Translations under genes and position numbers: made by a program
Source of the DNA: Acidobacteriota bacterium
Lineage (GTDB): Bacteria; Acidobacteriota; UBA890; WLXD01
Reading direction: 5' to 3'
Assembly (NCBI GenBank): GCA_965248695.1
Contig: CBDFKD010000002.1
Coordinates: forward strand, 5,184,001-5,248,000
DNA: 64,000 nucleotides
The notes under the pieces: generated by a model
The model's database searches: none
Told to the model about the DNA's origin: nothing
The model's input: the letters and a program-made list of their open reading frames with translations, nothing else
Shown: positions 2,256-19,491 of the stretch, one piece after another
Numbering within the stretch: the stretch's first letter is position 1
Layout of the letters: each line of letters opens with the position of its first letter

Positions 2256-2294
2256 TCCGGGACACGGGCCGCGAGTCAGCGTCTCGGCCTCACA

Positions 2295-3836: not shown

Positions 3837-4804
3837 TGGAGACTCCGAAGGTCCGCATCGCAGCACTCGGTCCCTTCATAGGTCTTGCGGCCGTGGTGAT
3901 CTTCTTCGCGGCGATAACCCCGCCGGCGTTCCAGTCGCTGTACAACCTCAAGACGATCCTTACGCAGAGCGTCATCGTCGGCATCGCCGCTCTGGGCATG
4001 ACATTCGTCATCGTCTCCAGGGGCATCGACCTGAGCGTAGGCTCGCAGATCGCGCTGGGGACTGTCGTCACCGGGCTGGTGGTGAATTCGGCCGGGCAGG
4101 GATTCGTCGGCCCCCTGCTTGGTGCCGCTGCCGGAGTGGCGGCGTGCGTTGCGGTGGGCGCCCTGAGCGGCGTCCTCATCACGCGGTTCAACGTCATTCC
4201 GTTCATCGTCACGCTCGGGATGATGCAGATCGCGCGCGGCGTCGCCAAATGGCTTGCCCGCGAAGGGACGCTGGCGATCCCGGACAACTGGCTCAACGAT
4301 CTGATGCTGGTCGATCCACGCCCGACGTGGTTGATGTTCGCGCCCGGCGTGTGGATCGCGGTGGCGCTCCTGGCTGCTTCGACGGTCATCCTGATGCACA
4401 CTGCGTTCGGGCGTTATGTGTTCGCCATCGGCTCCAGCGAGCGCACCGCCCGGCTATGCGGCGTGCGGGTCGAACGGATGAAAGTCGGAATCTACGCGCT
4501 GAGCGGCTTCTTCACCGGCGTTGCGGCGGTGATGCAGTGTGCCTACCTCACGGTGGGTGACCCGACATCCGCGGCCGGCTTGGAGCTCGACATCATCGCC
4601 GCAGTCGTGATCGGCGGCGGATCGCTAGGGGGTGGCGAGGGCAGCGCTGTGGGCTCGGTCGCCGGGGCATTGATCATGGCGGTCCTGCGCAACGGCAGCA
4701 ACATGCTCGGAGTGCCGCACTACGTGCAGGAGATCATGATCGGCGCGTTCATGCTCGCCCAAAGCAACGGACATGCAAATGTCACGCAAACCTATTTTTT
4801 GTAG
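3836..4804 (+). pseudogene. Sugar ABC permease (RbsC-like) interrupted at its 3' end by the prophage; last ~18 codons are phage-derived
   Basis: GIDLSVGS, PFIVTLG and ELDIIAAVVIGG motifs; homology breaks after QEIMIGA at 4747; native tail found at 55865-55960. Confidence 0.85.
4735..4747 (+). repeat. attL core (CATGATCGGCGCG; 7-bp overlap CGGCGCG)
   Basis: Matches 55858-55870 with one mismatch; joining the two sites restores the permease reading frame. Confidence 0.9.
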
Positions 4805-4877
4805 CAACTTACAGGCGACCCTCTTGTGGGGCTAATTCTGTTCTTTCCGGTCTATTTCGGGGTGTTTCCCGGGTTTC

Positions 4878-4896
4878 CTGGTACAAAAGTGGTATC
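4878..4896 (+). promoter_or_regulatory. Putative integrase arm-type site (left)
   Basis: CTGGTACAAAAGTGGTATC matches 55782-55800 at 17/19 positions. Confidence 0.6.
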
Positions 4897-4987
4897 GGGG
4901 TGCCGGCGCTCGCGCAGCACAGGAGGGTAGCGTGCGGGGCGAGGCGATGTGGCGGCTCGAAGAACTGCTGAGGCTCGGGAGAGCGGC

Positions 4988-5992
4988 ATGAGGCACTTCC
5001 GGCTGATCTGTGCCGACGTGCTGGAGGGCCTCGCCCGGTTACCCGACGAATCGGTCCACTGCGTGATAACGAGTCCGCCGTATTGGAGGCTGCGCGACTA
5101 CGGTACCGACGGCCAGCTCGGGCTGGAGGCCACGCCCGAAGAGTACGTGGAGACCATGACGGGCGTGTTCCGCGAGGTGCGCCGTGTGCTGCGCTCTGAC
5201 GGCACGCTGTGGCTGAACATGGGCGACTGCTACGCGAGCGGCGGGTACGGGGCACGAGATCCCGAGAGGTGGCCGGAGCAGAGCCGAAACAACCATATGC
5301 GGCACGCCAGGGCACCAAGCGGCGGCCTCAAGCCCAAGGATCTCGTCGGCATACCTTGGCGGGTCGCCTTAGCGCTACAGGCGGATGGCTGGTGGCTGCG
5401 AAGCGACATCATCTGGGCCAAGTCGCCACCGATGCCGGAATCGGTCAAGGACCGCCCCACGAAAGCGCACGAGTACGTCTTCCTGCTGTCGAAGTCCGCT
5501 CGCTACTGCTACGACGCAGATGCGGTTCGAACGCCCTATCGCCCTGCGACGCGGAGCGATTTGGTTGATGGCAGGTGGCGAAAATCCAACATCTCTGGGT
5601 GGGCAAATTCGCCGAACTTTCACGGGGCCAATCCGACTAGTAGGCCGCAGCGCCCTTGTCACCGCGGCGGCAAAGTCAAGCAAGGTGCGAACCTGCGCTC
5701 GGTCTGGACCATCTCGAATAGCGGCAAAGATGCGTTTCCCGAAGCGCACTTCGCAACCTTCCCGACCAAGCTCGTGGAGCCGTGTGTGCTGGCCGGCTGC
5801 CCCGAAGGCGGTGTCGTGCTTGACCCCTTCTGCGGCTCAGGCACCACGGGCGTCGTCGCACTCCGCGCAGACCGGCGCTTCGTGGGTATCGAGCTCAATG
5901 AGCAGTACGTGGAGATGGCGCGCCGCAGGATCGGAGATGACGCGCCGCTGCTGAACCGCGAGGACCCGATGCTCCTGGATCTAGCGGCATGA
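4988..5992 (+). CDS. DNA N4-cytosine/N6-adenine methyltransferase (beta class)
   Basis: Catalytic ITSPPYW motif precedes SAM-binding VLDPFCGSGTTG; HFATFP. Confidence 0.92.
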   Translation: MRHFRLICADVLEGLARLPDESVHCVITSPPYWRLRDYGTDGQLGLEATPEEYVETMTGVFREVRRVLRSDGTLWLNMGDCYASGGYGARDPERWPEQSRNNHMRHARAPSGGLKPKDLVGIPWRVALALQADGWWLRSDIIWAKSPPMPESVKDRPTKAHEYVFLLSKSARYCYDADAVRTPYRPATRSDLVDGRWRKSNISGWANSPNFHGANPTSRPQRPCHRGGKVKQGANLRSVWTISNSGKDAFPEAHFATFPTKLVEPCVLAGCPEGGVVLDPFCGSGTTGVVALRADRRFVGIELNEQYVEMARRRIGDDAPLLNREDPMLLDLAA

Positions 5993-6312
5993 TCAGCTTC
6001 GAGTCCCCCGCGATCCCCGACGTTGAAGGCGTGGACATCGCCCCGGAGCGCGCACTTGCCGCTGCGGTGATCCGTCGGGCGATTGTCGACCTGGGCATGG
6101 TGGCAACGTGGCGTGATCGAACCGAGCGGCCCGCTTGCACGTGCAAGAGGCTACGGGAGATCGGCCCCGAATCAGACCTGGTTGCGTGGTTGTCGCACCC
6201 GGAGGAGTTGCGCCCCTGCTCGCTGGGCTGGTGGTGTCAGTACATCGGTGCTGACCCGGTGGCGCTCACCGAACAACTGCGTCATCGAGGGCTCTTGGAG
6301 GCAGCGGCATGA
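5989..6312 (+). CDS. Phage hypothetical protein
   Basis: ATGA-coupled to neighbouring genes on both sides. Confidence 0.6.
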   Translation: MISFESPAIPDVEGVDIAPERALAAAVIRRAIVDLGMVATWRDRTERPACTCKRLREIGPESDLVAWLSHPEELRPCSLGWWCQYIGADPVALTEQLRHRGLLEAAA

Positions 6313-7556
6313 CTCCAACGCCCCGCCGGATCGAGGATCTGCAGCCGGCGCCCTACAACCCGCGCACTATCGATGCCCCCTCGCTGGAGGCGCTGAAGGC
6401 ATCGCTGGGTACCTTCGGCGACCTCTCAGGTATCACCTTCAACGAGCGCACCGGGCACCTCGTTACGGGCCACCAGCGCGTGCGTGTGCTACGCGAACAG
6501 CACGGCGAGTCAGCGCGCATCCGTCACGCCGGCAAGGAAGCGTACCTACACGTGGGCTCCGAGCGGTTCCGGTTGCGCGTCGTGAACTGGGACGAGGAGA
6601 CGGAGCGCGCCGCGAACATCGCCGCCAACTCGCCCCTGCTCGCAGGCATCTTCACGGACGATCTACCCGACCTGGTGGCGCTGGCCCAAGAGGAGTTGCC
6701 GGAGCTGACCGATGCGCTCCGATTCGATGATCTGCTGGAAACGCTCGACATGGGACCGGAGCCCATCGAACTGCAAGATGACGAGGTGCCAGAGCCACCA
6801 GCCAACCCGGTGACCAAGCCCGGGGACGTATGGACACTGGGGGATCACCGGCTTATCTGTGGCGACGCGCAGGATCCTGGTGTCGTCGCCGCGCTGCTCG
6901 GCGATCATGTCCCGTTGCTCATGATCACCGATCCGCCCTACGGCGTGGAGTACGAGCCGGAATGGCGCGAACGTGATTTGGGAGAAAAACATGCGGGCCG
7001 GCGGTCCGGGATTGTACGCAACGACGATTGCGCCGACTGGCGAGAGGCGTTCACCCACTTTACCGGCGATGTCGCCTACGTATGGCACGCATCCTTGTTC
7101 GGTGCGGTCGTGCTCGAAGGGTTAGCGGCGGCGCGGTTGGGGCCTCGTGCCCAGATCATATGGGCCAAGCCGCAGGGCGTGATCTCACGTGGTCACTATC
7201 AATGGGCTCATGAGCCGGCCTGGTACGCGGTGCGCCGCGGCCGGAGCGCGCGCTGGAGCGGAGACCGGTGCCAAAGCACGCTCTGGCGCATCTCCAACCA
7301 GCTACGAGCCTCCGAAGGCAAGACGGACCACTCGACGCAAAAGCCGCTTGAGTGCATGGGCCGTCCGATGCGCAACCACGGCAAGGTCGGCGATGGGGTC
7401 TATGACCCGTTCGTGGGCTCGGGTACCACGCTCATCGCCGCCGAGCAGCTGGAGCGCCGCTGTTTCGCCATCGAGATCGACCCCGGCTACTGCGACGTAA
7501 CCGTCGAGCGCTGGGAAAACCTGACCGGCTCCAAGGCCAACCGGTGCACCCCGTGA
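6309..7556 (+). CDS. ParB-like N-terminal domain fused to DNA methyltransferase
   Basis: PAPYNPR and GHQRV (ParB-N); TDPPY, HSTQKP, YDPFVGSGTT. Confidence 0.9.
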   Translation: MTPTPRRIEDLQPAPYNPRTIDAPSLEALKASLGTFGDLSGITFNERTGHLVTGHQRVRVLREQHGESARIRHAGKEAYLHVGSERFRLRVVNWDEETERAANIAANSPLLAGIFTDDLPDLVALAQEELPELTDALRFDDLLETLDMGPEPIELQDDEVPEPPANPVTKPGDVWTLGDHRLICGDAQDPGVVAALLGDHVPLLMITDPPYGVEYEPEWRERDLGEKHAGRRSGIVRNDDCADWREAFTHFTGDVAYVWHASLFGAVVLEGLAAARLGPRAQIIWAKPQGVISRGHYQWAHEPAWYAVRRGRSARWSGDRCQSTLWRISNQLRASEGKTDHSTQKPLECMGRPMRNHGKVGDGVYDPFVGSGTTLIAAEQLERRCFAIEIDPGYCDVTVERWENLTGSKANRCTP

Positions 7557-7575
7557 TCATCCCAGGCACACACCC

Positions 7576-8133
7576 ATGAACAACCGCTGCACGGCGATTA
7601 CCACGAGCACCGGAAAACGCTGCAAACGCAAGGCGTTACCCGGATCGGATCGGTGTGCCATCCCCTCGCATGCCGAAGATGTTGTCCAGGAATGTCCAGG
7701 AGCCAACGTGCGCGCGCGCGCGAGGGATTGGGAATCGGTCTACTTCAAAGCGTTAGAGCGTGGACACACCAAGGAGTCTGCTGCCGGTGTCGCTGGCGTC
7801 AGCGCGGCAACGCCCTACAAGCGCGTGCAGCGGGGAGACACGGCGTTCGCCGAGCAGGAGGACATTCACTACAACCGGGGCTTGGGGATGCTCATGGAGG
7901 TGGCGCGGCGACGCATCCTGGATCCCAAGCGCCCTGGAGATCTCGTGCTCAAGCATCTGCTATCGGTTCGTGGCGTCAGCGAGCGCGTGCAAGTGACGGG
8001 TGCCGACGATGGCCCGGTCATCACCAGGATCGAGCGGGTCATCGTGTATCCCGAGAATCGGAATGACGATGCAGACGCTGACCCTAAGGCTGATGCAGCC
8101 GCCGGCCCCGAGGCTCAGGACGATGCGGCATGA
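7576..8133 (+). CDS. Probable terminase small subunit
   Basis: Directly upstream of terL; HTH-like segment; C-terminal QVTGADDGPV motif typical of TerS. Confidence 0.7.
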   Translation: MNNRCTAITTSTGKRCKRKALPGSDRCAIPSHAEDVVQECPGANVRARARDWESVYFKALERGHTKESAAGVAGVSAATPYKRVQRGDTAFAEQEDIHYNRGLGMLMEVARRRILDPKRPGDLVLKHLLSVRGVSERVQVTGADDGPVITRIERVIVYPENRNDDADADPKADAAAGPEAQDDAA

Positions 8134-9355
8134 CGGGCAGCATGAAGGCACGCTTCAGATCGACACGCCGCACGGGTTTGAGCCGCTGCTCAAGGAGCGC
8201 GCACGGTACCGGGGTGCGTACGGTGGGCGAGGATCAGGCAAGTCATGGTTTTTCGCCTCGCTGCTGGTGCAACGATGCCTAGAGGATCCCAACACCCGAG
8301 CCCTGTGCGTGCGCGAGGTGCAACGGTCGCTGGATCAGTCCGTGAAGCGGCTGCTAGAGGACACCATCGGAAGGCTCGGGGTGTCAGAGCACTTCCGCAT
8401 CCTCAACACGCATATCGAGACCGGCGCCAACGGCCGGATCATCTTTCACGGGATGCAGAACCATACGGCCGAGTCGATCAAGTCGCTGGAGGGGTATGGG
8501 ATCGCGTGGGTGGAGGAGGCGCAGTCGCTATCAGCCAAGTCGCTAGAGCTGTTGCGCCCGACGGTGCGCGCCACCGGCTCGGAGCTGTGGTTTTCGTGGA
8601 ACCCCAACAGTCCCACCGACCCGGTGGATGCGCTGCTCCGCGGCACCAATGCACCGCCCGGCGCGGTGGTGGTGGAGGCCAACTACGCGGACAACCCCTG
8701 GTTCCCAGACGTGTTGGCCCAGGAGATGCAGTGGGACCGGGCGCGCGACCCGGACAAGTACGCCCACGTCTGGCTGGGGGAGTACGTGGGCCGGTCAGAA
8801 GCGCGAGTGTTCGACAACTGGAGCGTCGAGCAGTTCGCCGATCCGCCCGAAGGCACAGCGTTGTACTTCGGAGCCGACTGGGGTTTCTCAGTCGACCCGA
8901 CGGTGCTGGTGCGCTGCTGGATCGATGGGCGGAAGTTGTACGTGGATCGGGAGGCGTACCAAGTGGGCTGCGAGATCGACCGCACGGCGGAGCTATTCGA
9001 CTCCATCGACAACGGCCAGGCACGCGCCTGGCCGATCATCGCCGATTCCGCTCGTCCGGAGACGATCGCGTATCTGCAGCGACACGGGTACCCGCGCATC
9101 GCCAAAGCGCGCAAGGGGCCGGGAAGCGTGGAAGAAGGTATCGAGTTTCTGCGCAGCTACGACATCGTCGTGCATCCCCGCTGCCACCACATGATCCAGG
9201 AGTTGACGTTGTACAGCTACAAGACGGATCGGCGCACGGGACAAGTGATCCCGGTGCTACAGGACACCCACAACCACGTCATCGACGCGCTGCGCTACGC
9301 GGTGGAGCGGGTGCGGAGAGTCGCGGTGAGGCAGCGACAGGTGGCCTGGGGGTGA
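8123..9355 (+). CDS. terL: Terminase large subunit, PBSX family (start approximate)
   Basis: YGGRGSGKS, AWVEEAQ, FSWNP, GADWGFSVDP, NHVIDALRYA. Confidence 0.95.
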   Translation: MRHDGQHEGTLQIDTPHGFEPLLKERARYRGAYGGRGSGKSWFFASLLVQRCLEDPNTRALCVREVQRSLDQSVKRLLEDTIGRLGVSEHFRILNTHIETGANGRIIFHGMQNHTAESIKSLEGYGIAWVEEAQSLSAKSLELLRPTVRATGSELWFSWNPNSPTDPVDALLRGTNAPPGAVVVEANYADNPWFPDVLAQEMQWDRARDPDKYAHVWLGEYVGRSEARVFDNWSVEQFADPPEGTALYFGADWGFSVDPTVLVRCWIDGRKLYVDREAYQVGCEIDRTAELFDSIDNGQARAWPIIADSARPETIAYLQRHGYPRIAKARKGPGSVEEGIEFLRSYDIVVHPRCHHMIQELTLYSYKTDRRTGQVIPVLQDTHNHVIDALRYAVERVRRVAVRQRQVAWG

Positions 9356-9706
9356 GGAGACGTGAGGAGACGCGCGCGCAGCAGCGAACCGATCTGCATT
9401 CGGTCGTTTCGTTGGTGCGCACGCCACCCCGAACCGGGGCGGCTCCCCGGAGCGATTTCATACAAGCACTCCAACGACCCTTGCATACCTTCCGAAGGGC
9501 AGCGTGGAGCCAACGTGCGGGTGGGACCGTGCAGGGCCACGACTGTCGCAGTAGGGACCGGGGGCGGATTGTTGTCTTCGACCCGAAGCCAGCCATACGG
9601 GGGCGTCCGCAAAAGCCACCTCCCCCACTAAGGACCAGGGGGAGTTGTCGGGTGTGCAAGTAGTAGTTAGAGGAACATATATCAGTAGATCTCGTCCGCT
9701 AGGTCC

Positions 9707-9718
9707 GGGGGGGGGGGG
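9707..9718 (+). repeat. G12 homopolymer tract upstream of the portal gene
   Basis: Twelve consecutive G, about 45 nt before the portal start codon. Confidence 0.9.
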
Positions 9719-9761
9719 AAAGGCCCCCGGTATGCGCGAGAGCTGAAAAAGGGGTGGGACG

Positions 9762-11177
9762 ATGCCAGTAGATACCGCTTCCGATACGTATGAGGCGTTC
9801 GTCACCAAGTGGCAGCGGGTGCGTCATTGCTACGAAGGCTCTGACGCAGTCAAGGAGCAGGGGGCTGGATACCTGCCCCCGCTAGCGAGCCACGGACGCG
9901 AGCCAGCCAAGTACGAGGCTTACAAGCAACGAGCGCTGTTTTACAACGCCACCGGACGCACGGTGGATGGTTTGGCGGGACTGATCTTTCAGAAAGAGCC
10001 AACGCTTCTGCTGCCCGCAAGCATCCAGGATCACGATAGGGACGTGACGCTAGGGGGCGAGTCGGCCGAGACGTTCGCACTCCAAGCTACCCGCGAGGTG
10101 CTGCTGACGGGTCGCTACGGAATCCTGGTGGAGATGGGCTCCGAACAGGTAGCGGGTAAGCGACCCTACTGGTGTGGGTATCGGGCCGAGGACATCGTGT
10201 CGTGGCGCACGCAGCGTCTGGGTGGCGATGAGATCACTACACGGGTGGTGCTCAGAGAGGTAGCGCGGGAGCCCGATGAGCGAGACGAGTTCGTCACGCG
10301 GCAAATCGATCAGTACCGGGTGCTGCGGCTACGAGACGGGGCATATACGCAAACGGTGTATCGGAAAGCCTCGAAATCCTCCTCCAAGTACGAACCATGG
10401 ACACCGCCGGGGCAGCAGGAGCCGGAAGTGGTGGCGATACGGCGCGGCGAGGCGCTGCCGTTCATTCCCTTCGTGTTCGTGTCTCCAAACTCCACGTCGG
10501 CTCGGGTGGACAAGCCCCCCCTGCTGGACCTGGTGGATGTGAACCTGTCGCACTACCGGACGATGGCGGACCTAGAGCACGGGCGACACTTCACGGCACT
10601 GCCTACCCCGTGGGTAGCCGGGATCAAGGACGAGGAGTCAGGGCGGTTGGAGATCGGCTCGGGCACAGCGTGGATGCTGGAGCCCACCGGTAAGGCGGGG
10701 ATGCTGGAGTTCACCGGCCAGGGGTTAGGGGCGTTGGACAAGGCATCGGAGGAAAAGCGCCTCATGATGGCGACGCTGGGTGCGCGGTTGTTGGAAGAGC
10801 AGCCGCGAGCGGCGGAGACCGCCACGGCGGTAGGGATGCGTCACGCTGGGGCCCACGCCACGCTGCGAACGGTGGCGCAGGCGATCGAGAGTGCCCTGGG
10901 TCAGGCGTGGCGGTATCACGCCTGGTGGATGGGTACGGAAGCCAAGCCAAGCGACGTGGAGGTTGCCTACGAGCTGAACAAGGACTTCGTGGCGGTGCCG
11001 ATGAGGGCCGACATGTTGCGCTCCTTGGTGTTGGCGTTGCAGGCGGACGCGGTGTCGTTTGAGACCTTCTGGGCGGCGATGCAGAAGGGCGAGCTGGCGC
11101 GGCCGGGGGTGAGTGCGGAGGAGGAACAAGCGGAGATCGGGCGTCAGGGACCGGCGCTCGTGGGAGAGGTGGCGTGA
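9762..11177 (+). CDS. Portal protein (DUF4055-like)
   Basis: Position after terL; Y..Y..RA.FYNAT.RT and PPLLDL..NL.HYR..AD motifs. Confidence 0.85.
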   Translation: MPVDTASDTYEAFVTKWQRVRHCYEGSDAVKEQGAGYLPPLASHGREPAKYEAYKQRALFYNATGRTVDGLAGLIFQKEPTLLLPASIQDHDRDVTLGGESAETFALQATREVLLTGRYGILVEMGSEQVAGKRPYWCGYRAEDIVSWRTQRLGGDEITTRVVLREVAREPDERDEFVTRQIDQYRVLRLRDGAYTQTVYRKASKSSSKYEPWTPPGQQEPEVVAIRRGEALPFIPFVFVSPNSTSARVDKPPLLDLVDVNLSHYRTMADLEHGRHFTALPTPWVAGIKDEESGRLEIGSGTAWMLEPTGKAGMLEFTGQGLGALDKASEEKRLMMATLGARLLEEQPRAAETATAVGMRHAGAHATLRTVAQAIESALGQAWRYHAWWMGTEAKPSDVEVAYELNKDFVAVPMRADMLRSLVLALQADAVSFETFWAAMQKGELARPGVSAEEEQAEIGRQGPALVGEVA

Positions 11178-11476
11178 GCAGGGTTCTAAGAGTTGACGGG
11201 ATATCGGTAGCCGTTGAGGAGGTGCCTCGTATCCATATAACCGAGGAGGCTCACGGCGAGTTTATTAGCCAGCCGACGCCGCACATTCGGCTAGCAGAGG
11301 ACTTGCCGGACGGTGAATGGAAGCACTATGTGCTGCTGCATGAGTGGGTGCATGCGGTGTTATTCGTGCGGGGGCTGAGCTCGGTTCTCGAAGAGCATCA
11401 AGAACTCGAAGAGTTGGTATGCAACGCCATTGCATCCGAGATGGTCAAGGGGGGGTTATTTCCCGATGCCACGTAG
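11174..11476 (+). CDS. Small HExxH zinc-metallopeptidase-like protein
   Basis: LLHEWVHAVL followed by a downstream EE. Confidence 0.6.
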   Translation: MSRVLRVDGISVAVEEVPRIHITEEAHGEFISQPTPHIRLAEDLPDGEWKHYVLLHEWVHAVLFVRGLSSVLEEHQELEELVCNAIASEMVKGGLFPDAT

Positions 11477-11744
11477 AGAGCCTGCGTATCGGGAGCTTCA
11501 TGCGGCCGCCGACAGGATCGAGCCGCGCCTGGAGCGGGCGTTCGTACGGGCCATGGAGCGCTTGCGGGATCAGGTGTCGATCAACGAGCTAGCGCTAGCG
11601 CTGTCGGCCGGCGATGCGAAGGGGGCGCTGCGGCGGGTGCCGGTGGGTGAGGTTCGGGAGGCGTTGGAGGGAGTGGGAGACAGCGTGCAGGAGGCGTTCA
11701 TGCGCGGTGGAAGACTCGGGGCGAAGCGAATCAATGAGCTCTAG
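11466..11744 (+). CDS. Head-associated protein (possibly the N-terminal half of a split minor head protein)
   Basis: Helical ORF between portal and gpF-like gene. Confidence 0.5.
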   Translation: MPRREPAYRELHAAADRIEPRLERAFVRAMERLRDQVSINELALALSAGDAKGALRRVPVGEVREALEGVGDSVQEAFMRGGRLGAKRINEL

Positions 11745-12060
11745 GATGGAGCGGGCGTTCGTACGGGCCATGGAGCGCTTGCGGGAGGGTCTGTACGACG
11801 AGGCTGGTGCCGAGAGCTTGATGGCGCCTGTTCTGGTGGAGTGGCACGACTCGTACGGCTGTTCTGCCAGTTGGCAGCCATTGGATATGATCGAGCCTGC
11901 GGCTCTCGTGTACCGGTCTGTAGGGTGGTTGGTACACGAAGACGATCAGTGTCTCGTGGTTGTGCCCCACCTGACGGACCAGACTGAGGGAGTTGCCCGC
12001 CAGGGGTGCGGCGACATGACGATTCCACGCTGCGCGGTGCTACGCGCGTCCAACGCCTAA
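11734..12060 (+). CDS. Hypothetical protein; N-terminus duplicated from the upstream gene
   Basis: VLVEWHDS...SVGWLV motif; 40-bp copy of 11530-11569 at 11747-11786. Confidence 0.55.
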   Translation: MSSRMERAFVRAMERLREGLYDEAGAESLMAPVLVEWHDSYGCSASWQPLDMIEPAALVYRSVGWLVHEDDQCLVVVPHLTDQTEGVARQGCGDMTIPRCAVLRASNA

Positions 12061-12074
12061 CGAGCCGGTAAGCG

Positions 12075-12656
12075 ATGGCCACGACCAGCACTTCCTTCCG
12101 GTTCGACGCCACGCTCCCGGCAGCACAGCGCGCCGCTGCCCGCCATGCGGCACGGCTCGTCAAGGGAGTCTCAGAGGAGACCCGTCGGGGTATTCGTGCA
12201 GCCATCGTGCGCGCCATCCGCGAGGGGCAGCCTCCGTTCGAGGCGGCACGCGCGATCCAACCGATGATCGGACTGAACGCGCAACAGGTCCAAGCGGCGC
12301 TGAATTACCGCGCCGAGCTGATCGACCAGGGGCTGACGCTGCAGTTTGTCGACCGCAAGGTGGACCGCTACGTGCAGAAGAAGCTTCGGGAGCGAGCCCG
12401 AACGATCGCCCGCACCGAGATCATGAACGCGCTCAATGCGGGGCAGGAAGAATCCTGGCGTCAGGCGCAGCGGGCGGGGCTGTTGCCCAAGGGGCAGAAG
12501 AAAGTATGGATCGTCACGCCGGATGATCGGCTCTGCCCGATTTGTGAGCCGATGCGTGACGCCGTGGCGGAGGTTGGTAAGCCGTTTCCGATTCCGGGGC
12601 CACCGGCGCATCCTCGGTGCCGGTGCGCGGTGGGGATCGCTACAGACGGCCGCTAG
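12075..12656 (+). CDS. Phage minor head/morphogenesis protein (Mu gpF/SPP1 gp7-like)
   Basis: RARTIARTE, CPIC, PPAHPRCRC. Confidence 0.85.
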   Translation: MATTSTSFRFDATLPAAQRAAARHAARLVKGVSEETRRGIRAAIVRAIREGQPPFEAARAIQPMIGLNAQQVQAALNYRAELIDQGLTLQFVDRKVDRYVQKKLRERARTIARTEIMNALNAGQEESWRQAQRAGLLPKGQKKVWIVTPDDRLCPICEPMRDAVAEVGKPFPIPGPPAHPRCRCAVGIATDGR

Positions 12657-12904
12657 AGCACGTTAATCGCGTGTAGCACGCAGTCTCCCCTGATACCACC
12701 AGATCGGGGAGGAGAAACGATCTTCGCCACAGCAGCAATCTCCATAGCGAAGACATAGCTATAGAAGAACAAAGTTAGTCACTTTTGCGCAAGGGGGGTG
12801 TTGACACCGCAACCAGGATCGTCGTATTGATTCAAGGAGACGGATTCAGACGCAACGGACCGTAGCCGGGGGGCCACGGTCGGTCGCGCTGACAGGGTGG
12901 GAGC

Positions 12905-13666
12905 ATGCAAGTCGTCGTTGAAGATCTGGGTGCCGTTGCCGAAGCACTTCGCGACGAGTACGTGGAGCGTGACGGTAAGTACGTACTGAAGCTCGAAGGC
13001 GATGTGCCGGGGATGGTGGTGGCCTCGGAGCTGGAGGAGCAGAAGAAGGCCACGGCGCATTTCCGGGATAGCAACGTTGGTCTGAACAGCAAGATCGGTG
13101 ATTTGACCACGAGGCTCGATGAGATCTCCGGTCTTGAGGACAAGTACACGAGCGCCGTCACGGAGCTTGAGACGTTGAAGAAGACGGCGCCCAAGAAGGA
13201 CGCGGAGATGCAAGCGATCCAGGCGCAGCTAGAGTCATTGGCAAAAAAGCTCGATGAGTCCAATGCGCGCGAGGTGGCGGCACGGCAGCAAGCGGCACGG
13301 AAGGATCTTGAGTCGCAGCTGCGAACCGTGGGATCCAAGCTCGGAGTACGTGACGAGGCGTGGGAAGACTTTTTGTCTCGTGGAACAGCGGTCTTCCAGC
13401 TGACCGAAGAGGACGGCAAGGTCGTTGCCAAGCGTGGCGAGGAGCCGTTGTTTTCCGAAATCAACCCGGCGCTGCCGCTCACGATGCAAGAGTGGGGCGA
13501 GAGGCTACAGCGACAAGCGGCGCATCTGTTCAAGGAATCCACCGGAGGTGGAGCACGCCCGAGCGATACGAGCGGTTCCACAACGGGCATGGCACGTATG
13601 GTTTCGGAAGATCAGTTCGGGGGGAGCTTGGAGGACATTGCGGCCGGCAAGGCCGTAGTACAGTAG
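12905..13666 (+). CDS. Capsid scaffolding protein
   Basis: Acidic coiled-coil protein upstream of the capsid gene; HLFK..TGGGA tail. Confidence 0.75.
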   Translation: MQVVVEDLGAVAEALRDEYVERDGKYVLKLEGDVPGMVVASELEEQKKATAHFRDSNVGLNSKIGDLTTRLDEISGLEDKYTSAVTELETLKKTAPKKDAEMQAIQAQLESLAKKLDESNAREVAARQQAARKDLESQLRTVGSKLGVRDEAWEDFLSRGTAVFQLTEEDGKVVAKRGEEPLFSEINPALPLTMQEWGERLQRQAAHLFKESTGGGARPSDTSGSTTGMARMVSEDQFGGSLEDIAAGKAVVQ

Positions 13667-13677
13667 AGGACAGCAGT

Positions 13678-13966
13678 ACCGAGCGTGACGTAGCACGCCA
13701 TTAGGCTACGGCGGCTAACAGGGTCTCTTTAGATCCAGGGGGCCGCGCCCCGGTGGGGACGAATCGGAAGTAACCGAGCGTGACGCGGTGCGGTACGAAG
13801 CCGCGGCGGCTGGTGGATCTTGAAGGATCCAAGGGCCGTGCCCCGGTGGGGACGAATTCGGTAGTACTAAGACATATTCTGAGAGCGTGACGTGGCACGC
13901 CATTAGGTCACGGCGGCTAACAGGGTCTCTTCAGATCCAGGGGGCCGCGCCCCGGTGGGGACGAAT
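13678..13966 (+). ncRNA. Three tandem copies of an ~85-nt structured RNA motif in the capsid leader
   Basis: Copies at 13681-13764, 13776-13857 and 13883-13966; conserved GAGCGTGACG, CGGCGGCT, GATCC and GGCCGYGCCCCGGTGGGGACGAAT; stems show compensatory and G-U changes. Confidence 0.75.
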
Positions 13967-13999
13967 CCGCAACTTCTTTTGTGGAGGAGTGCCCCGACA

Positions 14000-15115
14000 G
14001 TGGCCAATACCAACACCACCACGCATATCGTTGACCGTCTGTTGGCACAGGGTCTGTTGGCTCTGCGCGAGATGGTGGTCATGCCGCGGTTCGTCAACCG
14101 CGCCTACGAAAACGTTCCGGGCGATCAGTACTCGACGATCGATGTACCGATCCCCTCGGCGATCGCCGCAACCGCGGTAACGCCTTCCAACACGCCGCCC
14201 GACGATGCCGGGATCGCGCCGACGAAGGTGTCGCTCGTACTGGATCAGTGGTACGAGGCGCCGTTTTTCCTCAACGACAAGGAAATGCTGGAGGTGCAGT
14301 CGGGAACGATCCCGATGCAAGCCTCCGAGGCGATCAAGGCGCTGGCGAACAACATCGACAACGCCATCCTTGCCAAGTACAAGGACATCTACGGGTACGC
14401 CGGCACGGCGGGCACCACGCCGTTTACGAGCGACCTGTCGGCGTTCGTGAACGCCCGCAAGGTGCTCAACGAACAGCTCGCGCCACTGGATCCACGCTTT
14501 TGCGTGATCGATCCGGATGCAGAGGCGAACGCGCTGAACCTGCGCGCCTTCCAGGACGCCAGTTACCGGGGTGACCGTCAGGGTATCTTGCGTGGTGAGA
14601 TCGGCGAGAAGCTCGGCTCCATGTGGGCGATGGACCAGAACGTTCCAACGCATACCACGGGCGGCGGCTCAGGCTGGCTGGTGAACCAGTCGGACCATGT
14701 GGTGGGCAACGGAACCGTGACGATCGATACCGGCTCGGGCGATCCCGCCGAGGGCGACATCTTCACGGTGGCCGGTGACACGCAGACCTACGTCGTGGAG
14801 GCCTACGGGAGCAACGTCATCACCTACGCACCGGCGTCGAAGGTTGCCTGGGCCGACGATGCGGCGCTGACGTTCAAGGGCAGCCACACGGTGAACCTGG
14901 CGTTTCACCGTGACGCCTTCGCGTTGGCCATGCGGCCGTTCCAGGGAGCCGACCCGATGGGAGTCGGGACGTTCCGCGCGGCGGTCGACCCGGTATCGGG
15001 CTTGGCGCTGCGACTGGAAGTGTCGCGTCAGCACAAGAGGACTCGCTTCTCCTACGACTCCCTCTACGGTGTGCAGACGGTTCGCCCGGAGCTGGCGGTG
15101 CGCGTCGCAGGCTAA
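14000..15115 (+). CDS. Major capsid protein (P22 coat-like)
   Basis: GTG start with GGAGGA RBS; ALAN.ID, NLAFHRDAFALAMRP, YDSLYGV..VRPELAVRV. Confidence 0.88.
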   Translation: MANTNTTTHIVDRLLAQGLLALREMVVMPRFVNRAYENVPGDQYSTIDVPIPSAIAATAVTPSNTPPDDAGIAPTKVSLVLDQWYEAPFFLNDKEMLEVQSGTIPMQASEAIKALANNIDNAILAKYKDIYGYAGTAGTTPFTSDLSAFVNARKVLNEQLAPLDPRFCVIDPDAEANALNLRAFQDASYRGDRQGILRGEIGEKLGSMWAMDQNVPTHTTGGGSGWLVNQSDHVVGNGTVTIDTGSGDPAEGDIFTVAGDTQTYVVEAYGSNVITYAPASKVAWADDAALTFKGSHTVNLAFHRDAFALAMRPFQGADPMGVGTFRAAVDPVSGLALRLEVSRQHKRTRFSYDSLYGVQTVRPELAVRVAG

Positions 15116-15137
15116 TCGGCTGGGTCCACAATGATGA

Positions 15138-15174
15138 GGCTCGGTCGCGCTGGCTGCGTGCTCGCGACCGAGCC
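15138..15174 (+). other. Strong hairpin after the capsid gene (no U tail)
   Basis: GGCTCGGTCGCG / CGCGACCGAGCC 12-bp stem. Confidence 0.55.
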
Positions 15175-15197
15175 CACACCCCCTAGGTGACAAAGCG

Positions 15198-15371
15198 ATG
15201 GCTGCAATACCGACTCAGAAAGTCCGTCGCAAAAGCGATGGGGCGGAGTGCGTGATCAATCGAGAAGAGTTCAACGAACACGACTACGAGGAGATAGCCA
15301 AGCCGAAGGCTAGAGGCGGTGGCAAGCCGAAGTCCAAGGCGCAGCCTACGAAAAGGCGCAAGGGGAACTGA
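15198..15371 (+). CDS. Small basic hypothetical protein
   Basis: ATG-started 57-codon ORF whose stop overlaps the next start. Confidence 0.55.
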   Translation: MAAIPTQKVRRKSDGAECVINREEFNEHDYEEIAKPKARGGGKPKSKAQPTKRRKGN

Positions 15372-15910
15372 TGGCGACCTCGGTACTGAATGCGACCGTC
15401 GGCGGGGCTTGGAGCAACACCTACGCCACGCTGGGGGAGGCCGAGCAGTACCACGAGGACCGGGTCGCGTCCGGTACGGCGTGGACAGCCACGAGCACCG
15501 AGGAGGATGCCAAGACCAAGGCGCTGTTGATGGCGACGCTGCTGCTGGACCGAGCCTTTGAGTGGAGCGGGCACGCGGTGGATCGGAACCAGGCGCTGCA
15601 ATGGCCCCGCACGGGGATGCTCAAGCCGACCGGGTTTGAGCACGTCGCCTCCACCGAGATCCCGGTGCAGATCAAGAACGCGCAGGCGGAATACGCCCGG
15701 CAACTGCTGGCCGATCTCGGCCGCACGGATGATTCCGATATCGAGACCAAAGGCATCACCAGGATCAAGGCAGGGCCGGTGGAGTTGGAGTTCAAAGACT
15801 CCGTGTTTGCCAAGGCGGTGCCGGACCTGGTGGTGCTGCTGCTCCCGGAGCACTGGTACTACGCGGTACGGGGCCGTGCCTCCGGTACGCGACAGCTGGT
15901 GAGGGCGTAG
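15371..15910 (+). CDS. Head-tail adaptor (DnaT-like annotated family)
   Basis: NTYATL.EA..Y, QALQWPR, IP..IK.AQAE.A. Confidence 0.75.
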   Translation: MATSVLNATVGGAWSNTYATLGEAEQYHEDRVASGTAWTATSTEEDAKTKALLMATLLLDRAFEWSGHAVDRNQALQWPRTGMLKPTGFEHVASTEIPVQIKNAQAEYARQLLADLGRTDDSDIETKGITRIKAGPVELEFKDSVFAKAVPDLVVLLLPEHWYYAVRGRASGTRQLVRA

Positions 15911-15914
15911 CGAT

Positions 15915-16271
15915 ATGGGCTTGGAGAGTCTCGTTGCCTCCGGTGTGGCGCTGGCCAACAGCCTCACGAGCGACCTGCAGCACGACGTGGTCCACGAAGC
16001 GTATGAAGGCCCCAATGACCAGGGGGCACCGACGTATGGCTCAGCGGTACAGCGGCCAGCGCTCGTGGAGCACAGGCAGCGACAGGTGCGCGGCGACGAG
16101 GGCAACGTGGTGATGGCGCGGGCCAAGGTGAGCTTTCTGCACCCGGTGCGGATCGGTCCGTTGGATCGGATCACGCTACCGGACGGCACGACGGGGCCGA
16201 TCCTGGATATCGAGGGGATGGTGAATGGCTCCACCGGGGCACCCTACATGCTCGAGGTGTGGCTGGGATGA
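15915..16271 (+). CDS. Probable head-closure protein
   Basis: Position and size; DRITLPDG motif. Confidence 0.6.
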   Translation: MGLESLVASGVALANSLTSDLQHDVVHEAYEGPNDQGAPTYGSAVQRPALVEHRQRQVRGDEGNVVMARAKVSFLHPVRIGPLDRITLPDGTTGPILDIEGMVNGSTGAPYMLEVWLG

Positions 16272-16639
16272 GCGTACGGATCGAGGGGTTGTCTGAGCTG
16301 AGGCGCAAGCTGGGGGCCGTAACGGCTCGCATGCCGAGCAAGATCGAGGCGGCGTTGCACCGGGAGGCTCAAAAGATCGCCACCAAGAGCCGTCGGCGAA
16401 CCCCGGTGGATACCGGCGCACTACGTGCCAGCCACAACGTGGAGGCGCCCAGGCGGTCGGGTCGGGATGTATCGGTGCGGATCGGTGTTGGGGGGCCGGC
16501 GGTGAGCTACGCACACCGCGTACACGAGGACCTAGAGGCGCGCCACACGGTGGGCGAGGCGAAGTTTCTGGAGAACTCCGTGACCGAGGCGATTCCAGGG
16601 ATGGCGGCGCGGATCGGCAAGGGGTTGTTGGAGCGCTGA
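16268..16639 (+). CDS. HK97 gp10-like neck protein
   Basis: TPVDTGALRAS, YA..VHE, AKFLE. Confidence 0.85.
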   Translation: MSVRIEGLSELRRKLGAVTARMPSKIEAALHREAQKIATKSRRRTPVDTGALRASHNVEAPRRSGRDVSVRIGVGGPAVSYAHRVHEDLEARHTVGEAKFLENSVTEAIPGMAARIGKGLLER

Positions 16640-17031
16640 TGGCCTTTCTGCAGGAGGTGAAGAGCTACTTGGTCACCGAGAGCATCACGGATCCGATCTA
16701 TAGGGGAACGATGCCGGCGACGCCGGATACGGCGGTGGCGCTGTACCAGTACCCCGGGGAGGCGCCGTCGCGGGGGTTCGGGGTCACCGGCGGGGTGGCC
16801 TACGAGCGGCCGCGGCTGCAAGTCGTGGTGCGCGGTGCACCGCACGACCACGACACGCCGCTGGCCACCGCCACGAGTATCCGTGACGCGCTGGTGAAGG
16901 TTCAGGGCACCGAGCTGTCCGGAACGCTGTACCACTGGATCAGCCCTCTACAAGACCCGGGACTGTTCAAGCGCGACGAAAAAGAGCGCGTCTTGATCGT
17001 CTTTAACTGCCGCACGGAGAAGCACCGATGA
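16639..17031 (+). CDS. Tail terminator/minor capsid-like protein
   Basis: ERPRLQVVVRG motif; position before the tail tube genes. Confidence 0.7.
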   Translation: MAFLQEVKSYLVTESITDPIYRGTMPATPDTAVALYQYPGEAPSRGFGVTGGVAYERPRLQVVVRGAPHDHDTPLATATSIRDALVKVQGTELSGTLYHWISPLQDPGLFKRDEKERVLIVFNCRTEKHR

Positions 17032-17216
17032 CCGAAGCGGGGCCTGAAACAGATGCTCACAGCAGTCGGCTCGTGGATGCTCGCGGCAACGCGATCCCCA
17101 CTCATTTAGATGATGGATCGTGCCCGCAATGCGGGGCCTCGGAGGACAGGCAGCAGAAAGCCTTCGGAGGTACGAGCTGGTGTTTGAAGTGCGGGCATAA
17201 CTACAGGAGCGACTGA
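17028..17216 (+). CDS. Small zinc-ribbon protein
   Basis: CPQC and CLKC pairs; ATGA-coupled. Confidence 0.55.
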   Translation: MTEAGPETDAHSSRLVDARGNAIPTHLDDGSCPQCGASEDRQQKAFGGTSWCLKCGHNYRSD

Positions 17217-17220
17217 TCTC

Positions 17221-17487
17221 ATGGCTACCCAAAAGCTGCGCGTGACGAACCGTCGCGGCGCCATCACGTATCCCATCGATCCGAAGGCCGTGCAGGCGAT
17301 CGCTAAGGCGGGTGGGCTATCGCGCATGGGCGCCAAACAGCGCGCCGGGATCGAGCTTAGGACCGTCGAGGCTGGGGGCGACTGCTCCGATATGCCCAAG
17401 AAGCTGCAACAGGTTCAGATCCAGTCCGGCAACGTCGAGATCGTCACGCCGCGCTTCAAGGCGAAGTCTCAACGGGGAGGTAAGTAA
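17221..17487 (+). CDS. Hypothetical protein
   Basis: ORF coupled to the downstream gene (TAATG). Confidence 0.55.
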   Translation: MATQKLRVTNRRGAITYPIDPKAVQAIAKAGGLSRMGAKQRAGIELRTVEAGGDCSDMPKKLQQVQIQSGNVEIVTPRFKAKSQRGGK

Positions 17488-18224
17488 TGGCACGCCACGG
17501 TCCCGCCGATGTGTTCCTTACGGTGGATGGCTACGACCTGACGGCCGCGAGTCCACAGCAGCTATCCGAAACGGTCACCGTCCCCACCGTGCGTACCGAT
17601 GGGCTGGGAGATGGGTGGCAAAAGCACACGCCCATCGGTGTGCGCCAAGTGGAGCTGAGCATTGAGGGAGCGTTCTTTGATACCGGAGCCAACAACAGCC
17701 ACGCGGCGCTAGGGGGCTCGGTGCCGAGCTCGGTGCAGGCGGTACCGCGCCTGCTCGTGTACGGCCCCTCCAGGGGCGTGGGGGATGCGTGCGTGGGTCT
17801 GTCGGGTCTGTATCAGCAGAGTTACCAGGTAATGATGTCGCAAGGCGATCTACACCGAGCCAACGCCACATACCTGGTGACCGGGCAGCGCGACGAGTGT
17901 GTGCTTTTGCAGCCGCTGGAAGCCAAAACGGCCGACTGGAATACCGAGAGCCAGACGCTGGACAACGGTGCCAGTTCGGCCAACGGCGCTGTGGGGTACC
18001 TCGTCGTGAACGCCGCTGCGGGCATCACGGGCTTGTCGGTCAAGATCCGCGACTCGGCCGATAACACAGTGTTCGCAGATCTCATTACGTTCACCAACAA
18101 CGTCTCGGCTCCGTTCGCCGAACGCCTCGGTGCAACCGGCACGGTGGATCGCTACATCGCCGTGAGTGGCGCGCTGACGGGTACCGGCTCGATCACCTCA
18201 CTGATCGCAATGTCTCGTTTGTAA
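17487..18224 (+). CDS. Tail tube-like protein with C-terminal extension
   Basis: Beta-rich; shares GD.W..HTP.G.R.V with 18267-18689. Confidence 0.6.
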   Translation: MARHGPADVFLTVDGYDLTAASPQQLSETVTVPTVRTDGLGDGWQKHTPIGVRQVELSIEGAFFDTGANNSHAALGGSVPSSVQAVPRLLVYGPSRGVGDACVGLSGLYQQSYQVMMSQGDLHRANATYLVTGQRDECVLLQPLEAKTADWNTESQTLDNGASSANGAVGYLVVNAAAGITGLSVKIRDSADNTVFADLITFTNNVSAPFAERLGATGTVDRYIAVSGALTGTGSITSLIAMSRL

Positions 18225-18266
18225 TCGACAACAACGGCCCGCAATGCGGGCGGGAGAAAGACAACG

Positions 18267-18689
18267 ATGCCTGGAAAGTACGGCTCCTCATCGGTATCGG
18301 TGACCATCGAGGATGCTCCCGGTGGGACGGCCCGCGACATCTCCAACTACTTGCTCGAAGGGGTCGATCCACAGATCGAGGCGGCGTTTGTGGAGACCAC
18401 CACCTACGGGGATGCCTGGGGAGAGCACACGCCCACGGGCATGAGGATGGTGAACCAGCTCACCTTCAATCTGATCTGGGACACGAGCACGAACGGCCCG
18501 CACGACATCTTCAAGGATGTCGATGATGGTCCCCAGGATGACGGCCGCGAGGTTGTCATTACGGCCGGTGACGGTAAGACCCTCACGGGCGATGTGCGGG
18601 TGGTGAGCTTCCAGGTGGTGATGAGTGCCGAGGACATCCACAAGGCGGTCGTGGTGCTGCAGCCGACCGGCGCGTGGACCTGGGCGTAA
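18267..18689 (+). CDS. Major tail tube protein
   Basis: ETTTYGD motif and C-terminal QPTGAWTW; immediately before the chaperone and tape measure genes. Confidence 0.7.
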   Translation: MPGKYGSSSVSVTIEDAPGGTARDISNYLLEGVDPQIEAAFVETTTYGDAWGEHTPTGMRMVNQLTFNLIWDTSTNGPHDIFKDVDDGPQDDGREVVITAGDGKTLTGDVRVVSFQVVMSAEDIHKAVVVLQPTGAWTWA

Positions 18690-18718
18690 GAGCAGCCAAA
18701 GACAAAGGAGAAACGTAG

Positions 18719-19126
18719 ATGTTGGTGACAGGAGAGCCCGTACAGCGGGAGATTCCACACGAGCCGGGGCAGCACTTTCTACTCAACCGGCTCTCGTGGA
18801 AGCAGCTGCGCAAAGCGCGCAGCCTGCAGGAGGATTATTCCCGCGAGTCCGCTAAGGCTTGGGGAGCGGAGTTCCTTGAGGTGCTTTCGAAGGGTGGCGA
18901 CAGAGCCGAGGGGGAGATTCGCAAGGTGCTCCAAGAGCAGCGCTATCAGGCGGCCAACTACGACACGGGCTATCTGATCGACATGGGCGTGGCGGCCTGG
19001 TCCTACGATGCCTCCTGCGACTCCGAGAACAAGGCGGCGCTGGATGAGCGCACCACACAGTGGGCCGCTCAGGAAATCATCGATCTGACCATGCCTCCGT
19101 CAGAGGCTCAGGAGGGGGAAGCCTAG
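18719..19126 (+). CDS. Tail assembly chaperone (gpG-like)
   Basis: Position; ends just after the slippery sequence GGGGGAA. Confidence 0.7.
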   Translation: MLVTGEPVQREIPHEPGQHFLLNRLSWKQLRKARSLQEDYSRESAKAWGAEFLEVLSKGGDRAEGEIRKVLQEQRYQAANYDTGYLIDMGVAAWSYDASCDSENKAALDERTTQWAAQEIIDLTMPPSEAQEGEA

Positions 19127-19491
19127 TCCGGCTGTATCGCCACTTCGAGGGTATTGGTGATGAGCCGGTGCCCGAGGCGTGGTTCATCAGTCGGCTATGT
19201 GAGGAGTTTGGATGCACGCCACTGCAGGTGGTGGAGGATCTCGAAAACGACCCGGAGCGCTGGATGCTGCGCATCCTGCCGCTGCGGGCTTTGGCGCGCG
19301 CGTACCAAAGCTACAAGGCGGCTCAATCCAAGAAAGAACTTGGCAAGGCCATCCATCAAGACCCGTGGGTGCGGCGGGTCGTCGAGATCGACTTTGCCGA
19401 GAAGCGACGGCAGATAGAAGCCAACAAGCAAGGCGGCGACGAGGATGATTCCGATCGGGGTGCTCGAGGCGATCCTGCGGCTGCGGGATGA
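19114..19491 (+). CDS. gpT-like portion reached by -1 frameshift at GGGGGAA (19114-19120)
   Basis: Open -1 frame to 19491 with LCEEFGCTP motif and no own RBS/ATG. Confidence 0.7.
   Translation, partial: GGSLVRLYRHFEGIGDEPVPEAWFISRLCEEFGCTPLQVVEDLENDPERWMLRILPLRALARAYQSYKAAQSKKELGKAIHQDPWVRRVVEIDFAEKRRQIEANKQGGDEDDSDRGARGDPAAAG

Follow-up and report, generated by a model that had tools for sequence, protein, structure and literature searches.

Some messenger RNA (mRNA) leaders can fold in two ways, one of which hides the ribosome-binding site (RBS). Examples are the platforms of translational riboswitches, the cIII mRNA of phage lambda, and the mom mRNA of phage Mu with its Com protein, and phages also offer precedents for leaders that are activated by a protein. 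Among RNAs built from small hairpins, the guanidine-II (mini-ykkC) riboswitch consists of two small hairpins with conserved tetraloops, while the CsrA/RsmA sites and decoy RNAs present several GGA loops. In phage P22, the known autoregulation concerns the scaffold mRNA and not a coat leader. Here, we describe a structured RNA element in the leader of a P22-type major coat protein gene, found in a prophage of an Acidobacteriota bacterium (GCA_965248695.1, contig CBDFKD010000002.1, positions 5,184,001-5,248,000). We call this stretch of 64,000 nucleotides (nt) the window and number its positions from 1. The leader would resemble the two-fold leaders in that an upstream hairpin is set against a helix over the Shine-Dalgarno sequence and start codon, with a bound factor deciding between the two. 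It differs from them in lacking any sequence or Rfam relation, in having as its core a GGN triloop hairpin that usually occurs in pairs and is here triplicated within whole units, and in that the switch is a predicted one.

The gap of 333 nt between the scaffold stop codon and the coat start codon is filled by three direct copies of one unit. Tandem copies had been predicted at this site between the two genes, and they are indeed present, although a unit measures 92-93 nt by covariance model and not about 85 nt. On the forward strand, to which all coordinates below refer unless stated otherwise, unit 1 lies at 13677-13769, unit 2, the diverged copy, at 13772-13863, and unit 3, which adjoins the RBS, at 13879-13971. 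A covariance model built from the three window copies (R1) scores them at 114, 87.3, and 105.2 bits, respectively. Copies 1 and 3 are 95% identical over 85 nt (13681-13765 versus 13883-13967), and three-copy repeat families occur at both unit ends (39 nt, 100/72/85%, and 28 nt, 89/100/93%). Tandem Repeats Finder detected nothing in the repeat region, probably because copy 2 has diverged. The spacer between units 2 and 3 (13864-13878) is A+T-rich and unpaired; that it serves as a processing site is a guess. In four runs of one sample, the unitigs are interrupted at the repeat, the piece common to copies 1 and 3 has about double depth, one unitig spans 13736-13939, and the unitig graph fits three units; these runs are possibly the assembly's own source, so that their support for three units is not independent. 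The repeat region is noncoding, since Pfam offers no match at E≤0.1 to its open reading frames (ORFs; 13701-13898 and 13715-13903 on the reverse strand, 13887-14180 on the forward strand), the units follow one another at 95 and 107 nt, neither of which is divisible by three, and the substitutions in the stems are compensatory.

All the stems that had been listed for the units occur in the sequence. In unit 1, stem A pairs 13689-13694 with 13705-13710, stem B has a base (13711-13716/13741-13746) and an apex (13721-13726/13731-13736), both as first described, and stem C (13748-13751/13755-13758) reads CCCC-GGU-GGGG; the corresponding stem C lies at 13841-13851 in unit 2 and at 13950-13953/13957-13960 in unit 3. 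In copies 1 and 2 the three stems are enclosed by a closing helix of CCGA/UCGG and CGU/ACG with an AA bulge (in unit 1, P1a at 13679-13682/13764-13767 and P1b at 13684-13686/13759-13761), the outer part of which does not form in copy 3. For stem A, copies 1, 2, and 3 have CGTAGC/GCTACG, CGCGGT/GCCGCG, and CGTGGC/GTCACG, so that two pairs change on both sides (U-A to C-G and A-U to G-C) and others change to G-U. Copies 1 and 2 have a four-way junction as their minimum free energy (MFE) structure, at -41.5 kcal/mol (z -2.44; matched by 2/200 shuffles) and -44.0 kcal/mol (z -2.37; matched by 6/200), respectively. Copy 3 by itself is no better than shuffles (z -0.71, 46/200), and the whole 333-nt leader has a z of -2.89. 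The reverse strand of copy 2 scores z -2.61 as well, which means that the strand is not fixed by folding energy alone.

The element is not confined to this prophage. Searching IMG/VR with an exact 15-mer gave 59 loci, among which R1 had 8 matches at E≤1. In one of them (L087, identical to L201), a single unit lies between a scaffold-like gene and a coat gene whose product is 55% identical to that of the window. The matches in L053, L074, L090, L042, L088, and L080 lie in other contexts than a coat leader and were treated as chance. An IMG/VR search with the L087 coat protein found L087 itself only, and coat relatives were gathered with an alignment of 14 proteins, yielding 80 IMG/VR loci and 80 metagenome loci in addition to 23 earlier ones. 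Of these 183 loci with a tblastn match, 163 had a start that could be used and no fewer than 150 nt ahead of it, corresponding to 112 distinct upstream regions. On 100 coat-gene loci, R1 had 14 matches at E≤10, and 12 of the 14 abut the coat start. We rebuilt the model from 13 sequences, which partly include the window units (R2); the E-values of both models are rough. R2 gave 34 matches at E≤5, and 22 of the best 23 (E<0.6) are sense-strand matches immediately ahead of the coat start. The model derived from the three copies has led to homologues in the coat leaders of metagenomic phages. R2 scores the window units, partly its own training set, at 78-88.6 bits (88.6, 78, and 81.8 for units 1, 2, and 3) and the relatives at 17-66 bits. 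The relatives carry single units, and no other locus has more than one full unit. Within the bacterium's own genome R2 finds six places only, three in each of two related prophages, and four whole phage contigs contain no second strong copy of the element. The window units share what defines the family, namely, adjacent covarying hairpins A, B, and C on the sense strand upstream of a coat gene of the PF11651 family.

The original prediction had also held that the element is a structured RNA under selection, and covariation among the relatives bears this out. In an alignment of 24 sequences, which was fitted to the model, pairing is kept in 99% of cases for stem A, 97% for the apex of stem B, and 100% for stem C, and all 28 doubly varying pairs fall in model helices. 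The covariation score is 0.564, versus 0.172 for shuffled alignments (reached in 0/500) and 0.06-0.12 with slid partners. An independent alignment of 12 sequences with MAFFT, folded with RNAalifold, recovers stems A and C and the base of stem B. The stems contain 38 G-U or U-G pairs versus 12 A-C or C-A pairs, an excess which indicates that the sense strand is the folded one. The multi-way junction fared less well. It is the MFE structure in copies 1 and 2, but only 61-67% of the cells of the closing helices are paired in the relatives, and the closed four-way junction, as judged from these sequences, is a trait of copies 1 and 2 here that is not conserved in the family. Likewise, the junction bases are invariant among close relatives and not across the family.

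Comparison with known families returned little. Scanned against Rfam 15 at gathering thresholds, the whole window contains two tRNAs (34723 and 36443) only, and the covariance models, ribozymes and riboswitches included, have no match in 13550-14100 even at E≤10. Across 20 related loci at E≤1, the sole Rfam match is a sub-threshold tRNA-Sec-like one outside the leader. No match to 13600-14050 was found by blastn among 50,697 phage records; the 297-nt repeat region matched its own genome only in a search of 60 related genomes; and R2 had no match among the 28 candidates scored per genome in 150 further genomes of the phylum. We found no description of the motif in the literature. The word "capsid" does not occur in PMC5737381. 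A comparative screen of IMG/VR (Fremin, Bhatt, and Kyrpides 2023, PMC10690425) reports 10,006 viral structured RNA candidates and lists some that are consistently upstream of genes, among them five upstream of one major capsid protein family. That family is PHA00201, whereas the family here is PF11651, and the motif tables of that study may contain the element. We thus regard it as an RNA family tied to P22-type coat genes and without Rfam match, for which we found no prior description but which may have been listed earlier.

These searches also bear on two further readings, a self-cleaving ribozyme and a packaged or trans-acting RNA, such as a small RNA or a virion-associated RNA; ribozyme and virion-associated RNA were among the functions first considered for the units. 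The multi-stem shape and the conserved junction bases are all that speaks for either. Ribozymes are among the models without a match at E≤10, the leaders of the 20 related loci have none at E≤1, and we found nothing in favor of a virion-associated RNA. The element is invariably a cis element in sense orientation whose distance from the coat start is fixed, and its minimal versions are two hairpins. Both functions are very improbable.

What is conserved most widely is not the whole unit, as had been thought, but its stem C, a hairpin of 4 bp with a C-G closing pair and a GGN triloop. We counted hairpins of this fixed 4-bp definition at positions -130 to -1 of the 112 leaders and on both strands of the remainder of these loci. 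For C-GGT-G hairpins, the density is 4.33 per kb in leaders versus 0.144 elsewhere, and the values are 2.95 versus 0.048 for GGG, 1.65 versus 0.084 for GGA, and 1.58 versus 0.152 for GGC, i.e., the core hairpin is enriched 10-60 times. At least one is present in 80 of the 112 leaders and at least two in 59, and in the latter the two nearest hairpins are spaced by 22 nt (quartiles 20-23, range 18-30, n=59). From the end of the proximal hairpin to the start codon there is a median of 41.5 nt (interquartile range, 37-54) in gene gaps that range from 12 to 481 nt. The proximal loops (n=80) are GGT in 43 cases, GGG in 17, GGC in 11, and GGA in 9; the 5' arms of these hairpins are 75% pyrimidine and the 3' arms 75% purine. 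Hairpin-bearing leaders have a G+C content of 29-82%. Their start codon is GTG in 23/80 cases versus 5/32 in leaders without hairpins, with no clear difference. The minimal versions among the relatives are two hairpins of 11-19 nt. In about 13-14 of 21 aligned relatives a GGN loop also caps the apex of stem B. In the window the apex loops are CTTT, TGAA, and CTTC, and GGN occurs at stem C only; the GGT hairpins here are 93 and 109 nt apart and thus lie outside the two-hairpin spacing of about 22 nt. A further arrangement is seen in the leaders of L153 and L022 (representing L020-L023), where three to four C-GGA-G hairpins stand in a row at about -150 to -50, not as whole units; this is another route to multiply the core hairpin.

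The arrangement of these hairpins invites comparison with two known RNAs. Like the guanidine-II riboswitch, the leaders have two small hairpins with conserved loops, C-G closing pairs, and a short linker, just upstream of an RBS. They differ from it in that their loops are 3-nt GGN loops unable to pair mutually, in that they have no Rfam match, and in that the gene downstream encodes a coat protein. With CsrA/RsmA sites they share several hairpins with GG in the loop, about 20 nt apart and near the RBS, but the third loop base is mostly U. A role as a CsrA target was rejected, since GGA makes up just 9 of the 80 proximal loops and no CsrA gene was found in the host genome. More generally, the G+C fraction of the leaders, 0.29-0.82 across phages, makes one host regulator unlikely. 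We also rejected G-quadruplexes, which are ruled out by covarying stems such as CTAC/GTAG, and, after inspection by eye, a pairing between the loop of stem C and either that of stem A or the 5' flank, since a complementary triplet is missing from copy 2 and ACC persists in the flank of leaders whose loops are GGA.

Tandem direct repeats between conserved genes could in principle act as DNA, as a recombination or packaging site, an array for a DNA-binding protein, or a mobile intergenic element. The presence of an endonuclease gene alongside the leader in some relatives could be cited in support: in L014, a gene of the HNH family (PF01844, E 5.3e-10) lies at 1723-2442 between the scaffold-like gene and the coat leader, and the same is true of L015. 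The insertion in L014 looks like one of the homing type. Being placed between scaffold and leader, it indicates that the element stays with the coat gene. A DNA-level function would leave aside that the stems covary with pairing kept, that G-U pairs exceed A-C pairs by 38 to 12, and that the orientation is strictly sense: hairpins with A, G, or T as the third loop base (GGD) number 153 on the sense strand of the leaders versus 5 on the reverse strand. There are also no copies elsewhere in the genome or in the phage contigs beyond the coat leaders. We therefore hold an action at the level of DNA to be most unlikely.

How could such hairpins act? The main clue to the mechanism, which had gone unnoticed at first, is the alternative pairing of stem C with the RBS. 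In many leaders, the 5' arm of the proximal hairpin recurs in the spacer that separates the Shine-Dalgarno sequence from the start codon; more precisely, this spacer complements bases 2 and 3 of the loop, the 3' arm, and two further bases behind it. In L111, GUGUGGCC pairs with GGCCACAC, an arm and its matching spacer; in L143, where the arm is different and the spacer again matches it, GGGAUGCU pairs with AGCAUCUC; and in L216, with yet another arm and its matching spacer, GGGUAGCU pairs with AGCUACUC. The duplex energy is -6.55 kcal/mol for cognate combinations versus -4.84 kcal/mol for noncognate ones (0/5000 permutations, n=79). To reduce the effect of shared ancestry, we grouped the 81 leaders, among them that of the window, into 32 arm classes, and at this level the values are -6.93 versus -5.82 kcal/mol (3/20000 permutations); both tests concern short duplexes and ignore competing structure. 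A contiguous helix of at least 7 bp is present in 23/81 cognate pairs versus 9-10% of noncognate ones. When leaders are folded from the hairpin to position +12, the MFE structure holds the RBS pairing in 46/81 and the local hairpin in 20/81.

In the window, the alternative pairing with the RBS is the predicted ground state. The coat gene has a Shine-Dalgarno sequence, GGAGGAG, at 13983-13989, read directly from the sequence and 10 nt ahead of the start codon GTG at 14000. In the predicted OFF structure (13956-13996), UGGGGAC at 13956-13962 pairs with GU.CCCCG at 13989-13996, and a hairpin inside this helix (13966-13972/13979-13985) covers the first GGA of the Shine-Dalgarno sequence. The partition function, computed from unit 3 to +12 or over the whole leader, gives the long-range pair a probability of 0.93-0.95 and the stem C of unit 3 one of 0.001. 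Enforcing this stem C costs 3.6-4.8 kcal/mol, and freeing 13980-14006 costs 15-18 kcal/mol. The predicted OFF helix also occupies the two bases with which the 3' strand of P1b begins (13961-13962), which makes the folding of the unit and the closure of the RBS mutually exclusive.

With these data in mind, we propose that the element is a two-state translational leader of the coat gene, whose GGN hairpins are held in the open form by a factor. The repeats, their family, the covariation, the position, and the complementarity to the RBS are observed. The proposal itself is tentative, and our confidence in it falls a little short of even, since the switching, its direction, and the factor, both that there is one and what it is, are deduced from sequences and predicted energies. 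In the ON state, the 3' arm of stem C would pair with its own 5' arm, leaving the RBS free. In the OFF state, the loop and 3' arm of stem C would pair with the end of the Shine-Dalgarno sequence and with the spacer, hiding the RBS. A factor that recognizes and clamps the GGN hairpins would hold the ON form, and coat translation would follow the level of this factor. We infer a factor because the GG of the loop and the closing pair are kept whatever the spacer needs and because the two loops stand at a fixed spacing. Given the wide host range, it would most likely be a phage-made protein or a component universal in hosts. The three identical stem C hairpins of the window, whose stem B apex would have lost its GGN loop, stand in place of the two loops about 22 nt apart of most relatives and may then provide multivalent and cooperative control. 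Of the functions first considered, a cis-acting regulator of coat expression that probably binds a factor appears, from the sequences, to be the best reading. The analogy with P22 which had accompanied that suggestion is weak: the two systems share the coat fold family PF11651 and the order of scaffold and then coat, but P22 has no leader at all, its scaffold stop codon overlapping the start codon of the coat gene at position 4804.

Several observations weigh against this proposal. All the leader states are thermodynamic predictions. The RBS pairing is absent from the MFE structure in 35/81 leaders, and just 9/32 arm classes have a member with a helix of at least 7 bp; in the window itself the alternative helix runs over 5 uninterrupted pairs, or 7 if a bulge is allowed. 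L201 and L113, the closest relatives by structure, have no RBS complementarity (-2.4 and -3.4 kcal/mol), and the same is true of a marine group with CUCC-GGU-GGAG hairpins (-2.0 to -2.6 kcal/mol) and of the Vibrio phage group (L171, -1.0 kcal/mol). The all-pyrimidine 5' arms of these groups could instead pair with the Shine-Dalgarno sequence itself. The partial pairing of the closing helices in the relatives means that neither a closed junction nor a pocket is conserved. As for the factor, the 17 ORFs scanned across 34-15910 (8130-8282 and positions beyond 15910 lie outside the scan) include no recognized RNA-binding family, although several matched nothing. CsrA (PF02599), which is found in 3/14 control genomes, was not found in the host's own genome, which is 96% complete. 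Finally, an RBS that is closed by default is of no obvious benefit to a gene needed in hundreds of copies per virion.

One candidate for the factor was tried and rejected. The ORF at 15198-15371, directly 3' of the coat gene, encodes 57 amino acids (aa) with a strongly basic tail rich in Lys, Arg, and Gly, and has no Pfam or PHROG match. Its weak tblastn relatives occur patchily after the coat gene, behind leaders with and without hairpins.

The leader might also work without any factor. Its hairpins could serve mRNA stability, by shielding the coat segment of the late transcript, processing by RNase III or RNase E that frees the RBS, or the blocking of Rho loading on a long gap without translation, and phage leaders that are processed or stabilizing have precedents. 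The 333 nt are highly structured, an A+U-rich unpaired stretch (13864-13878) lies between stable structures, and the predicted OFF form is an extended irregular helix, all of which would suit such a role. Yet, protection leaves the invariant GG of the loop, the C-G closing pair, the 22-nt spacing, and the distance to the start codon unexplained, and neither does it account for the cognate complementarity to the RBS. Vibrio phage SSP002 (L265) is informative in this respect. By eye, its scaffold-coat gap (1289-1494) contains a terminator-like hairpin with a T run and a near-consensus promoter-like site, TTGACG-17-TATAAT, so that the coat gene of this group may have its own promoter. Two C-GGG-G hairpins follow in the 5' untranslated region, the first of them at least about 20 nt downstream of the promoter-like site and not at the 5' end, the place to expect a stem that protects. 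A factor-free leader is, in our opinion, unlikely, though it deserves consideration.

Hairpins just downstream of a promoter-like site, as in SSP002, could equally suggest an action on transcription. In such a scheme, the nascent hairpins would act on RNA polymerase like a nut or put site, allowing read-through of the late operon, or the stem C of unit 3 would be an antiterminator in competition with a weak terminator; adjacent hairpins 0-1 nt apart do resemble antiterminator RNAs. The window contains a terminator-like site at 13955-13970, followed by AACTTCTTTT, which uses the 3' arm of the stem C of unit 3. However, its stem has 5 pairs, 3 of them G-C, and the 3 terminator-like sites of the region are not above the chance expectation from shuffles (2.1 ± 1.6). 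Most relatives have an A/C-rich tail after stem C, not a U tract, and both the RBS complementarity and the constant distance from the start codon point to translation. This makes a transcription-level element quite improbable. No sigma-70-like promoter was found in 12600-15600 of the window.

The element might also be a riboswitch. Each unit would be an aptamer for a small molecule or ion, the three would act cooperatively, and the ligand would lock P1b and stem C, thereby opening the RBS. The tandem arrangement and the multi-stem junction fit this view, as do the invariant junction bases (CG before stem A, CG in the loop of stem A, a G linker, and CGAA after stem C) the two mutually exclusive conserved pairings, and, in the window, the sharing of the 3' strand of P1b (13961-13962) with the OFF helix. 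On the other hand, junction closure is not conserved; the loop of stem A gives way to one of 4 nt in the group of L177, L027, L097, and L102; many leaders are two small hairpins without any junction; no Rfam riboswitch matches at E≤10; and there is no apparent metabolic logic for a ligand acting on a coat gene. We consider a riboswitch to be quite unlikely as well.

The genes around the element fit a phage head module. The head scaffolding protein gene (12905-13666; phrog_206, E 3.2e-19) encodes a coiled-coil protein of 253 aa, with weak coiled-coil matches only in Pfam. The coat protein gene (14000-15115; PF11651 P22_CoatProtein, E 1.2e-18) encodes 371 aa; its ORF extends over 13955-15115, and the GTG at 14000, behind the Shine-Dalgarno sequence, is the true start. 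The coat protein is 55-67% identical to those of metagenomic phages and 51% identical to the major head protein of Vibrio phage SSP002. Farther upstream, an ORF of 472 aa (8245-9663) lies just ahead of the portal gene, at the place expected for a large terminase, and matches neither Pfam nor PHROG families at E≤0.001. Two DNA methyltransferase genes (PF01555) precede the head genes at 4949-5992 and 6309-7556, the second having a ParB-like N-terminal part. Host-like genes in 34-3836 (PGA_cap, a periplasmic binding protein, and an ABC transporter) place the left end of the prophage near 4-5 kb. The two tRNA genes (34723-34807 and 36443-36517; 58.2 and 50.2 bits), of which the first has a long variable arm, are located within the phage-like region or at its border.

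The second prophage that carries the element is closely related to the first. Between 8109-19302 of the window and G000:C2:2305868-2317690 in the same genome, the head modules are 98-99% identical; the differences are concentrated at 15800-17900, and 12797-15800 is nearly identical. The units themselves differ by a single base, which belongs to the loop of stem B in unit 1. Further mosaic matches of the prophage are scattered on the chromosome and on the 128-kb contig C1.

The implications could extend to a large group of phages. What is known of how double-stranded DNA phages balance a high output of coat protein against that of scaffold comes largely from a small number of model phages. A conserved RNA that keeps its distance from the coat start, in leaders of such different G+C content, would be a new control point in capsid assembly, and the leader itself would be a compact natural example of a hairpin competing with an RBS. 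The cultured relatives of the Vibrio phage SSP002/MAR10 group, for which one record (RZ01) gives Vibrio natriegens as the host, could serve to test this, and the covariance model can flag coat-gene leaders in metagenomic phage contigs. A bolder view, which is unlikely but worth stating, is that these leaders are a widespread class of effector-responsive translational ON-switches that gate coat synthesis in phages with P22-type capsids from soil, sediment, and marine environments, with the present one as the first described member. A phage assembly protein, e.g., free scaffolding protein, or a small molecule would then clamp the hairpins and release the RBS. If this were true, coat synthesis would be coupled to assembly readiness, and the triple unit of this prophage would give a cooperative, near-digital response.

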